From Eledone cirrhosa (Eukaryota), in the NCBI GenBank assembly GCA_964016885.1, contig OZ024745.1, forward strand, positions 99,634,001-99,698,000: a stretch of DNA of 64,000 bases, given 5' to 3'. The position numbers and the translations under genes were made by a program. The notes below the pieces were generated by a model. It searched no databases. It saw nothing but the letters and a program-made list of their open reading frames with translations, and had not been told where the DNA came from. Shown here in pieces: positions 2,231 through 9,990 of this stretch (the first letter of the stretch is position 1; each line of letters starts with the position of its first letter).

Positions 2231-2416
2231 TCTGAATATATATATAAGTATGTATACGTACATACATACATGCATGCACACATATATATATATGTACATA
2301 TGGATTCACCGAACATTTATTATAATGCTCGGTGTGTTTGTAAACAAACATCCCGAATTAAGCCGTACAGTGTCTAGCAACCATCATTGCTCATTTGTTC
2401 AACACTGACAAAGGAA

Positions 2417-2457
2417 CGCTGTACTAGTTTCAAGCTTATTAGCTATCGTCAGCAACG
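2417..2457 (-). ncRNA. Minimal type I hammerhead ribozyme motif (minus-strand copy)
   Basis: Minus strand reads CGTTG-CTGACGA-tAGCTaataAGCTt-GAAA-CTAG-TA-CAGCG. Helix I is CGTTG/CAGCG, helix III is the palindrome ACTAGT, and the triplet is GUA. Confidence 0.7.
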
Positions 2458-2611
2458 TATACCTTCCTGCCAGATGGTTGAACGTCTGAAAGTATATACT
2501 TTCCTTATGCATATTAATGGCTGAGCAGCCTAATTTGCATATCGAGTGAGTTAATATGCATAAGGAAAGTATATACTTTCAGACGTTCAACCATCTGGCA
2601 GGAAGGTATAG

Positions 2612-2651
2612 GTTGCTGACGATAGCTAATAAGCTTGAAACTAGTACAGCG
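2612..2651 (+). ncRNA. Minimal type I hammerhead ribozyme motif
   Basis: GTTG(2612-15)-CTGACGA(2616-22)-helix II AGCT/AGCT closed by U.U-GAAA(2637-40)-CTAG-TA(2645-46)-CAGC(2647-50). Predicted cut after 2646. Confidence 0.7.
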
Positions 2652-2936
2652 TTCCTTTGTCAGTGTTGAACAAATGAACAACGATGGTTGCTAGACACTG
2701 TACGGCTTAATTCGGGATGTTTGTTTACAAACACACCGAGCATTATAATAAATGTTTGGTGAATCCATACGTACATATATATATGTGTGCATGTATGTTT
2801 ATATATATATATACATACTACTGTTCGTCTGTATACATATATGTATGTACGTATACATACTTATATTTAAGTAACAGCCGTACTAAGAGTGAGAAATGAA
2901 ATTTCGTTTCATTTTTTCCGTTTATATATATATATA

Positions 2937-3327: not shown

Positions 3328-3400
3328 AAATAAAAGTAGTTCCACAACAATTAGTTCACCATACCGAGAACAAATGTTTCACCTTAAGCAGATCTTCAGA
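3328..3400 (-). mobile_element. 5'-truncated Penelope-like tail with partial hammerhead motif, embedded in (TA)n
   Basis: Minus strand reads CTGAAGA-tctgcttaaggt-GAAA-CATTTG-TT-ctcgg. The 5' strand of helix I is replaced by the TA repeat. Confidence 0.4.
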
Positions 3401-3960: not shown

Positions 3961-3998
<38 letters not shown>

Positions 3999-4102
3999 AG
4001 GTGAGTTTTATTGTAGCAGAATAAAGCAATGCAAATATTGGATAAGTTGATTTAAAACTTCACTATTCACAAGTGTTTTTTAAGCTTCATATCATGTCTC
4101 CC

Positions 4103-4173
4103 TATTTTATCTGATGAGAACGCAGATATCATCCCATGATGATATTTGTTTTTGAAATGCGCATAATAAAATA
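4103..4173 (+). ncRNA. Type I hammerhead ribozyme motif with long helix II, inside a (TA)n-flanked insert (~3997-4207)
   Basis: TATTTTAT(4103-10)-CTGATGA(4111-17)-long helix II (gcagatatcatc/gatgatatttgt)-GAAA(4154-57)-TGCGCA-TA(4164-65)-ATAAAATA(4166-73). Perfect 8-bp helix I and perfect palindromic helix III ATGCGCAT. Confidence 0.75.
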
Positions 4174-4203
4174 CTTGGAACTCTTTTAACCATCTTTTGA
4201 TCT

Positions 4204-4243
<40 letters not shown>

Positions 4244-8142: not shown

Positions 8143-9157
8143 CTAATGAAATGTACAAGGCATATATATGCTGATAATATCTAAGACATTCTGGTAGATA
8201 AAAAATCTATGAAATGTTTTTTTTTTTCTGTTGGAACACATGGTTTTATATCTAATTCACAACACACACATATTGATATGTTTTGAATACACATCTAAAG
8301 CTACCCTGCACACCATTCCCATAGTATATCTCACATTCAGAAACCCTAATATGATGTCAAACACAACTAAATAAACAAATATAAAGTGAAATAGATTGTA
8401 ATCCTGCCATGGTTGGGAACCACCTTGAACACCCTCGCCCCATTCCAGTCTCTATCTTTAAACCCTCTGAATAGGAGGAGGTAAGCATGGTGTGAGTTTA
8501 TAGACAAAGGTGATGAAGACAAGCACTCCCTCACACTACATTGTTTGAGAATGTAATAGGATCATACAACCAAATGTAGGAAGGGTGGCCATGGGATTTT
8601 GGTGAGAGGATAAAAAAAAAATGGAAAAATAAGAATGAAAGACTTATAAAAAGATCATGAAAGAAATAGATAACAAAATAGATAAGAACCCCAATAAAGA
8701 TCACAGGCATTCAAACAGTTACAGAAGGTTGTTGTTGTTGTTGTTTAACCCCAGGGAAGCATTGATAAAGAAGACCCATAACCCAAACCATTCCAGCCAT
8801 AACTATCCCATCTTTTTTCACACCTTTGTATACCCTGGAATACATTATCCAATATATATGCTTTTTTTAAAGAGAGTACGGAGTGATTTGAGGGAAATTT
8901 GACTGCTATTTCTGGCAGGTCGAGCAACCATATGAAGGTTCCTTTTACTTATAGTATTTAATATATTATATACATTATATAGCTTCTAAGGAATATTCTA
9001 TCACATTGGAATTACTTGCCACATTATTTCAACAATATAAAACATTAGAAATGAGACAAAATCTCTCTCTCAAAACTCAAAAATCTTTAAATTACACAAT
9101 ATGTTATCCTTGGTGGACCAAATTCATTGCTTTATATATATATATATATATATATAT

Positions 9158-9480
9158 GCTGATATGCAAATATGGCTGATCAGTGGATCTGCTAATATGC
9201 AGATCTGACTGATCAGCCAGTCTGCTAATATGCAAATCAGACCGATCAGTCATTGTATATTTTAAAAAATAGCATATATTTTCACTAGCTCTGACAGTTG
9301 GCAGGTGAACAGTGAGATGTACTGATGAACACAGAAACACTAGTGTCTGCAATTCTGTTTACATGCCAACACAAGAGCAAGAATGAGGGGCTCATTCTAC
9401 TGACATGGCTTTAAAAATGAGGCATGTTTGCATAATTGCAAACGAATTGATTATTAATATTCGAAAACTTAGATTACATT

Positions 9481-9485
<5 letters not shown>
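9158..9485 (+). mobile_element. Penelope-like terminal element: three 33-bp octamer repeats, hammerhead and 3' hairpin, between (TA)n tracts
   Basis: gct(g/a)atatgca(a/g)at units at 9158, 9191 and 9224; hammerhead at 9318-9351; hairpin GTTTGCA-taat-TGCAAAC. Architecture is shared with the 2245 element. Confidence 0.7.
9318..9351 (+). ncRNA. Minimal type I hammerhead ribozyme motif lacking helix II
   Basis: TGTA(9318-21)-CTGATGA(9322-28)-acaca-GAAA(9334-37)-CACTAGTG-TC(9346-47)-TGCA. Helix III is the perfect 10-nt palindrome ACACTAGTGT, the triplet is GUC, and helix I can extend via aacag/ctgtt. Confidence 0.8.
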
Positions 9486-9568
<83 letters not shown>

Positions 9569-9599
9569 AATGTAATTTGAGTTTTCGAATATTAATAAT
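9450..9599. repeat. ~150-bp palindrome centred on a (TA)n tract
   Basis: ATTATTAATATTCGAAAACTTAGATTACATTTATTA-(TA)n-TAATAAATGTAATTTGAGTTTTCGAATATTAATAAT, with 2 mismatches in the 36-bp arms. Confidence 0.85.
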
Positions 9600-9651
9600 A
9601 ATATTGGAGGTACATAATAAAATAAATTTGGAGGCACATAATAATAAAATT

Positions 9652-9990
9652 GGAGGCACATGGCCTAGTGGTTAGAGCATTGGCTTTGCAATCGAAAGGT
9701 TGTGAGTTCAATTCTCAGACCGGGTGATGTGTTGTTTCCTTGAGCAAGACACTTTATTTCACATTGCTCCAGTTTACTCAGCTGTAGAAATGAGATGATA
9801 GGGACTGGGGTGCCTGCCTATCATTCCACTGCAAAGCAGTCGTGAATGTGTCACGGCAAAAAAGCCGCCAGCACTCACTGTAAATGAGGTTGGTGTTAGG
9901 AAGGGCATCCAGCTGTAGAAATCAAGCCAGAATCAGTTCCCATCCCACCCTTGCAAGCAGGGAAAAGCGGACGTAAAAATGATGATGATG
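9652..9990 (+). mobile_element. SINE family A (full length)
   Basis: Near-identical to 487-824, with (GAT)n tail. Confidence 0.92.

Follow-up and report, generated by a model that had tools for sequence, protein, structure and literature searches.

Two diverged repeats, at positions 9158 and 2245 of a 64,000-nucleotide stretch of the Eledone cirrhosa genome (the window: contig OZ024745.1, positions 99,634,001 to 99,698,000), are, judged by sequence, members of one superfamily of 300–500 nt non-coding repeats that bear a hammerhead ribozyme. With a probability of roughly 70%, we read these repeats as non-LTR retrozymes that carry sequence matching the promoters of host snRNA genes, likely driving transcription by RNA polymerase II (Pol II), and that are likely inserted by the reverse transcriptase (RT) and endonuclease of a Penelope-like element (PLE).

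Results

Two related elements in the window

An earlier note on this DNA had described a compact unit of octamer, hammerhead and 3' hairpin shared by the two loci, and all of its motifs are located where it had placed them, with an octamer-to-CTGAYGA spacing of 92 nt in the 9158 element (9230 to 9322) and 88 nt in the 2245 element (2540 to 2452, minus strand). Alignment of 9224–9450 with the reverse complement of 2330–2545 gives a local score of 142, a value reached by none of 2000 dinucleotide shuffles (79.7±7.0, maximum 111), and the top unrelated segment of the window scores 109. As a conserved unit the module stands for its promoter-like sequence and its hammerhead, both of which recur across diverged families, and is not supported for the hairpin as a general 3' recognition part. 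The hairpins of both loci do fold (z of −2.9 and −5.4), although the loop at the 2245 locus is 4 nt long and had wrongly been drawn with 2 nt. A hairpin is present in the families of the two loci (A for 9158, B for 2245), something hairpin-like is seen in family F, and none is seen in C or D; nor is it terminal, the mapped 3' ends lying about 40 nt (A) or 90–150 nt (B) beyond it.

The family A element lies on the plus strand and begins with three 33-bp tandem units upstream of the core (9154..9252), each with an octamer and a PSE-like TCAG; the octamers at 9164 and 9230 are perfect and that at 9197 is a variant. An octamer box at 9228..9241 matches that of the host U6, U6atac and MRP genes (14.1 bits under a model from five host Pol III promoters), and is followed at 9246..9251 by a proximal sequence element (PSE) core, TCAGTC, like that of the host U1, U2, U4, U5 and U12 promoters (PSE+TATA score 12.8 bits, p 0.002 over 46 positions). 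The promoter model scan places a TATA-like box at 9273..9279, 27 nt past the start of the PSE, and the host PSE-to-start distance of 55–58 nt puts the predicted transcription start at 9301..9304, within a conserved TGGCAGG. Fold and layout analysis identifies a type I hammerhead with a long extended stem I at 9288..9381 (core 9322–9328, GAAA 9334–9337, palindromic stem III, predicted cut after 9347). Folding gives the 3' hairpin at 9426..9443, and the mapped short 3' end of the family, at 9470..9485, is joined to a (TA)n run. On the other side of this run, tail-to-tail, is a second A copy reduced to a 36-nt 3' fragment (9564..9599, minus strand). Since the 9158 copy has lost stem II, through a deletion private to it among 72 A copies, it is likely inactive as a ribozyme.

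The 2245 element, of subfamily B1, is an inverted pair whose arms (2279–2517 and 2551–2789) are 97% complementary. Its minus-strand arm (2243..2545) has the octamer at 2540–2533, the PSE at 2524–2519, the TATA box at 2498–2492, the predicted start at 2469–2466, the core at 2452–2446, the predicted cut after 2422, the hairpin at 2349–2336 and the short 3' end near 2243. The plus-strand arm (2551..2924) is 5'-truncated and without octamer or PSE; its core is at 2616 and it runs to the long 3' end, the last 56 nt (about 2869–2924) being the tail.

The octamer at 4029 and the hammerhead at 4111 were considered as a further instance of the module and rejected: there is no PSE (0.4 bits) and the octamer is present in 7 of 12 copies. 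The window's other five perfect octamers have no downstream hammerhead or are part of the upstream A repeat. We note that 3997–4205 (plus strand) is a separate hammerhead element of about 210 nt between (TA)n runs, with 473 first-look candidates, a 5' end identical in 12/12 loci viewed, the octamer in 7/12 and no PSE. A short 3' fragment with a hammerhead-like core at about 3330–3400 (minus strand) resembles the end of an autonomous PLE at another locus (L092), and tRNA-derived, SINE-like heads are seen at 496–553 (an Rfam tRNA hit) and 9650–9790 (similar by eye).

Families, abundance and monomers

The host genome is AT-rich and 3.0 Gb in size, and a genome-wide pattern of octamer, 70–95 nt, core, 10–40 nt and GAAA has 26,511 exact matches, with none for the reversed control; a pattern for the promoter only has 40,980 (minus-strand sites counted twice), again with none for the control. 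Single motifs of 20–21 nt match exactly 1171 times genome-wide for A and 11,894 times for B. DNA searches of the genome gave 1587 and 1347 first-look candidates, 40 being scored per search. The families resolved are A, B1–B3, C, D and F together with a single degenerate copy, G; family D is older, its copies being about 80% identical. The families are probably homologous, and independent origins are therefore not called for.

Monomers of A, B and F are 422–502 nt long, have a GC content of 0.36–0.38 and occur head to tail, the tail running straight into the next promoter without an intervening ORF. One array of family F has 30 monomers with a period of about 466 nt (G000:C1:5738410-5751969). 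The longest ATG-initiated ORF in the monomers encodes 50–113 amino acids, and an ORF with RT plus GIY-YIG domains, the mark of an autonomous PLE, is absent from them. Folded as circles, the monomers are highly self-paired (z of −5.5 to −9.7 against 40 shuffles each).

Host snRNA promoters as a reference

Promoters were read against the host U6, U2, U1, U5, U6atac, MRP, U4, RNase P and U12 genes, of which U6, U2, U1, U5 and U4 are found in long tandem arrays (C19, C3, C2, C9, C1). Among the 17 non-redundant U1/U2/U4/U5/U12 (Pol II) promoters, YCA(G/A)Y is present at −55 to −58 without exception, and AATTAA at −88 to −91 in 15. An octamer box, ATG(C/G)(A/T)AAT(T/G)AG, is found at −76 to −78, with TATA at −30, in the three top-scoring U6 promoters and in those of U6atac and MRP, that is in five of the six expected Pol III type-3 promoters, RNase P being the exception; at the matching place it is present in 5/5 U6/U6atac/MRP promoters versus 0/17 Pol II snRNA promoters. 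Weight matrices trained solely on these host genes (17 Pol II and 5 Pol III promoters) separate both classes, the Pol III promoters scoring −3.1 to 4.0 on the Pol II-type core. Probable retro-copies that lack the promoter, namely twelve additional U6 loci and seven lower-scoring U6atac loci, were excluded from the models. The RNase P RNA gene (L292) has a Pol II-type PSE core upstream and, unlike U6 and MRP, no octamer box, which suggests that RNase P RNA may be transcribed by Pol II in this animal.

A putative hybrid promoter in the elements

By their motifs, the elements carry a hybrid promoter in which a Pol III-type octamer box is joined to a Pol II-type core, a combination absent from all host genes examined. 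When 46 positions upstream of each hammerhead were scanned with the host-trained Pol II PSE+TATA model, the site 16 nt past the octamer was chosen in eight of nine octamer-bearing representatives (6.8–13.9 bits), and the same eight octamers score 14.1–18.6 bits on the Pol III box model. The scores are significant for A, B (B1–B3) and D (p 0.001–0.015) and marginal for C (p 0.06), and family F fails the model (0.5 bits). In the layout, the octamer is followed 16 nt on by the PSE core and 24–27 nt further by TATA; the PSE-to-TATA distance compares with 25–29 nt in host Pol II genes, whereas the octamer-to-TATA distance of 40–43 nt compares with 46–48 nt in host Pol III genes. The start so predicted lies within the conserved TGGCAGG, where the ribozyme stem has its base; this motif of the earlier note is the 5' strand of the extended stem I. 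An octamer-PSE unit is duplicated in A and D. The suggestion that the octamer is a promoter element thus extends, on the evidence of these matches, to an snRNA-type layout of octamer box, PSE and TATA in which the octamer is one part.

Thirteen hammerhead ends without the module were scanned as well. Family E (two rows, 8.1 bits) and one unrelated hammerhead element (L112, 10.8 bits) scored on PSE+TATA, and the other ten, including the ends of three autonomous PLEs (−4.5 to −8.6), did not. We note that family E (L063 minus 2842; L152 plus 3333) has a hammerhead preceded by a PSE core and a TATA box spaced as in Pol II genes, without an octamer, its predicted start being again at the foot of the extended stem. 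A look-alike of the host AATTAA element at about −90 was made out by eye in B and E. No convincing 3' box was found in the elements, the best being that of A (8.6 bits, p 0.07) and the others reaching 5.0–6.7, compared with 7.5–18.3 in the host.

Greater conservation of the octamer than of neighbouring positions, on which the unit had been said to depend, is seen between families and not within one. Across representatives of five families all 9 octamer columns are invariant; of the columns in the stretch that follows 11 of 88 are so, and of those in the 3' region 3 of 105. The CA of the PSE and the ATA of the TATA box are likewise invariant between families, at a mean column identity of 58%. 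Within a family, octamer retention is no better than that of its neighbours (A, 343/352 vs 0.89–0.97; B3, 230/240 vs 0.97–0.99), as would be expected because neutral decay after insertion predicts no extra conservation there.

Hammerhead ribozyme folds

A type I hammerhead, with helices I–III and the conserved core, is set on a long extended stem I in every family; that of family D folds poorly (z +0.9), and in A and B stem II has a mismatch at its base (A·A, U·U). The hammerhead helices covary, 10 of 13 pairs changing on both sides (0/500 shuffles), in an alignment of eight related rows, from B, F, C and a related H element, with a structure set by hand; 93% of cells are paired, and slid controls give 25–45%. 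Stem III is palindromic in all families; it forms no hairpin by itself, and as a self-duplex it has an energy of −4.7 to −13.4 kcal/mol; a dimer-dependent form of hammerhead, as with a palindromic stem III, has been described (Cervera 2014, PMC4209133, in the part covered here). Rfam finds no hammerhead in the window at its gathering score, and the best score belongs to family F (HH9, 35 bits, against a cut-off of 52). Other hammerhead-bearing repeats that lack the octamer fall into at least eight types, most of them with a palindromic stem III.

Ends and insertion sites

The elements have their 3' ends at two fixed sites per family. The 3' ends of B1 fall at single positions 340 and 396, 56 nt apart, in 25 and 28 of 71 cases; those of F lie near 364 and 433 (3 and 9 of 14), and those of A in 251–275 (29 of 61) and 276–325 (24). 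The 3' flank is TA-rich for 58 of 71 B1 and 35 of 61 A copies, and most ends adjoin (TA)n. Head-to-head pairs combine a short with a long arm in 13 of 18 cases for A (p 0.037) and in 12 of 13 classifiable cases for B (p 0.0015; 10 of 23 were set aside for an ambiguous arm), and the B pair of the window is also of one short and one long arm.

For 5' junctions, samples anchored on a 3' motif were drawn from 90 of 100 listed A sites and from 100 listed B sites, giving 95 and 81 unique junctions. About half adjoin an inverted copy of their own family (48/95 A, 37/81 B). Going upstream, the 5' ends thin out smoothly, past cut site, start and promoter and on into the monomer before. The cut site is passed by 66 of 71 ends in A and 61 of 62 in B, and 42 of 95 ends in A and 39 of 81 in B reach upstream of the octamer. 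Because they run past the promoter, the template must include it, as would a circle closed by re-ligation or a long multimer left uncut. Two pile-ups of 5' ends that had emerged from a biased sample were rejected: the 3'-anchored ends at the cut site (first noticed in A) number 5/71 for A against 4.2 expected and 1/62 for B against 2.7, and those at the predicted start (first noticed in B1) number 6/57 for A against 4.2 and 5/56 for B against 3.1.

These features recall PLEs, for which two internal RT start sites yield a tail unique to this group, a protein dimer is predicted and both strands are extended (Frangieh 2024, PMC11167929, in part), and whose copies are tandem or inverted, with a one-sided tail and (TA)n targets (Craig 2021, PMC8557442, in part). 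Young PLEs abound in the genome, some of Hydra type (DKT, CxCx5C) and others of a Neptune-like type, clades assigned from the motifs given in the covered part of PMC8557442. PLE searches gave 76,271 and 39,718 first-look candidates; Pfam misses the ORF of PLE1 and gives a weak RVT_1 match for PLE2. Two autonomous host PLEs also have two 3' ends (19 short and 11 tail; 16 and 11). The families show no 3' homology to three autonomous PLE ends (z at most 2.2), further PLE families being unsampled; and when the 176 5' junctions were searched for chimeras with a helper PLE, three were in contact with a PLE, without a pattern.

Two observations were made alongside. The 3' UTRs of autonomous PLEs (L124–L153, L092) carry GCGCATGCGC upstream of the hammerhead, in 27 of 30 Neptune-like copies; we take this to be an NRF1 site. 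At one locus (L266) an inverted fragment of family A directly adjoins a U6atac retro-copy, which suggests template switching onto an snRNA at insertion.

Discussion

The life cycle that we envisage would begin with SNAPc/TBP and a POU factor initiating Pol II transcription at the base of the ribozyme stem. The RNA would read through into neighbouring monomers because there is no strong 3' box, and paired hammerheads, through their palindromic stem III, would cut out monomers that are probably circularised. A PLE protein would nick (TA)n DNA and begin reverse transcription at either of the two internal sites, copying the circle or a long multimer, and each insertion would regain the promoter because the copied circle or multimer includes the promoter upstream of the start.

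One rival reading concerns the choice of polymerase. The A–F elements could be transcribed by Pol III from a U6-type promoter, ending at a T-run, since the octamer box is a Pol III-type mark in this genome (5/5 vs 0/17), in A, B and F a T-run coincides with the long 3' end or immediately precedes it, and B1 is free of runs of T4 or more from the predicted start to that one. The element octamer-to-TATA distance, however, is 3–8 nt below that of the Pol III genes; the PSE core is of the Pol II type, on which host Pol III promoters score poorly; and family D copies extend about 100 nt or more beyond a T-run. Monomers hold T5–T9 runs, and copies span these and regain the upstream promoter. The shorter octamer-to-TATA distance and the need to read T-runs therefore favour Pol II, and we regard Pol III transcription as unlikely. 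A related question is whether the promoter acts at all, or is the relic of an ancestral capture, the RNA now coming from read-through of host transcripts. The lack of a 5'-end pile-up at the predicted start, the absence of extra octamer conservation within a family and the weak PSE+TATA scores of F and C would fit a relic; invariance of the octamer columns, the PSE CA and the TATA ATA between families otherwise so diverged, together with duplication of the octamer-PSE unit in A and D, makes it improbable.

A different possibility is that the elements are truncated 3' pseudo-LTRs of an unsampled autonomous PLE, whose ends they match in architecture, in a genome that holds PLEs in very large numbers and further families still unsampled. 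To this we give a small chance, since head-to-tail junctions join the tail to the next promoter without an ORF, the 700 nt upstream of each of 176 5' junctions hold no PLE ORF in the same direction, and the promoter is absent from three autonomous PLE ends. Our preferred reading therefore remains that of retrozymes with an snRNA-type promoter. Its fuller form, in which the superfamily captured host snRNA promoter machinery as a hybrid and consists of circular-RNA retroelements inserted by a dimeric Penelope-like protein, is more tentative, and we hold it at slightly short of even odds.

By testable sequence features, the elements appear to belong with the animal non-LTR retrozymes (Cervera and de la Peña 2020, PMC7229834). 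In the part of that paper covered here, no promoter is named for the retrozymes, in contrast to the snRNA-type promoter mapped here; octopus and cephalopods are nowhere mentioned; and PLEs are only a "strong candidate" for the mobiliser, whereas PLE end signatures are mapped here. The A, B and F monomers (430–500 nt) are at or above the size range given in the same part. PLE pseudo-LTRs, as far as the covered parts of three papers describe them (PMC8557442, PMC11167929, PMC4209133), share with the elements a hammerhead, tandem and inverted 5'-truncated copies, an optional tail from two RT start sites and (TA)n targets. The elements differ from them in having no ORF, in carrying an snRNA-type promoter that is missing from three autonomous PLE ends, and in having no 3' homology to those ends.

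A precedent is offered by an amphibian repeat with which ours share more than with any other. This is newt satellite 2, likewise a tandem repeat with a hammerhead, which according to partial accounts has an snRNA-type Pol II promoter inside it, a promoter that reportedly includes an octamer and a PSE. The snRNA-type Pol II promoter was described by Coats, Zhang and Epstein (1994; cited in PMC2220036), and the Pol II origin is also given in PMC6765202, in the passages covered here. Unlike the amphibian case, the elements reported here have a Pol III-type octamer box 16 nt before a Pol II-type core, and do so in several diverged invertebrate families. The trypanosomatid Pr77 also unites a promoter with a self-cleaving ribozyme, one said to be HDV-like. 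From the available part of its description, it binds TBP and SNAP50 and differs in being the 5' internal promoter of LINE-type elements (PMC8190864); schistosome Sm-alpha too has a promoter and a self-cleaving ribozyme in a small retroelement, but is reported as Pol III-transcribed (PMC6765202, in part).

What appears to be new is the hybrid promoter read against host genes, its retention over several diverged invertebrate families, and PLE-specific ends on retrozymes. In the main texts of a largely open-access literature, we found no work joining retrozymes and the proximal sequence element, one paper naming both retrozymes and cephalopods that does not deal with this subject, and nothing on a mollusc U6 promoter, PSE or octamer; the main text of a 2026 octopus repeat annotation has no occurrence of hammerhead or ribozyme. 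For both polymerases, the analysis also yields the layout of the snRNA promoters in this genome, which should help in expressing guide RNAs in the animal.

The mobilising enzyme and the cause of constitutive expression are left as questions in the covered part of the retrozyme paper (PMC7229834). On the enzyme, the two fixed 3' ends and the pairing of short with long arms suggest PLE proteins and define exact sites at which their RT would start; on expression, the match to host snRNA promoters, in which three motifs are involved, is a concrete candidate cause. Tens of thousands of such boxes could also affect the binding of SNAPc and POU factors genome-wide. If hybrid capture and a dimeric Penelope-like protein are indeed at work, these repeats would provide the first genome-scale sequence evidence on the mobiliser of animal retrozymes and, together with newt satellite 2, would suggest that SNAPc promoters may be a general reason for the expression of retrozymes in all tissues.
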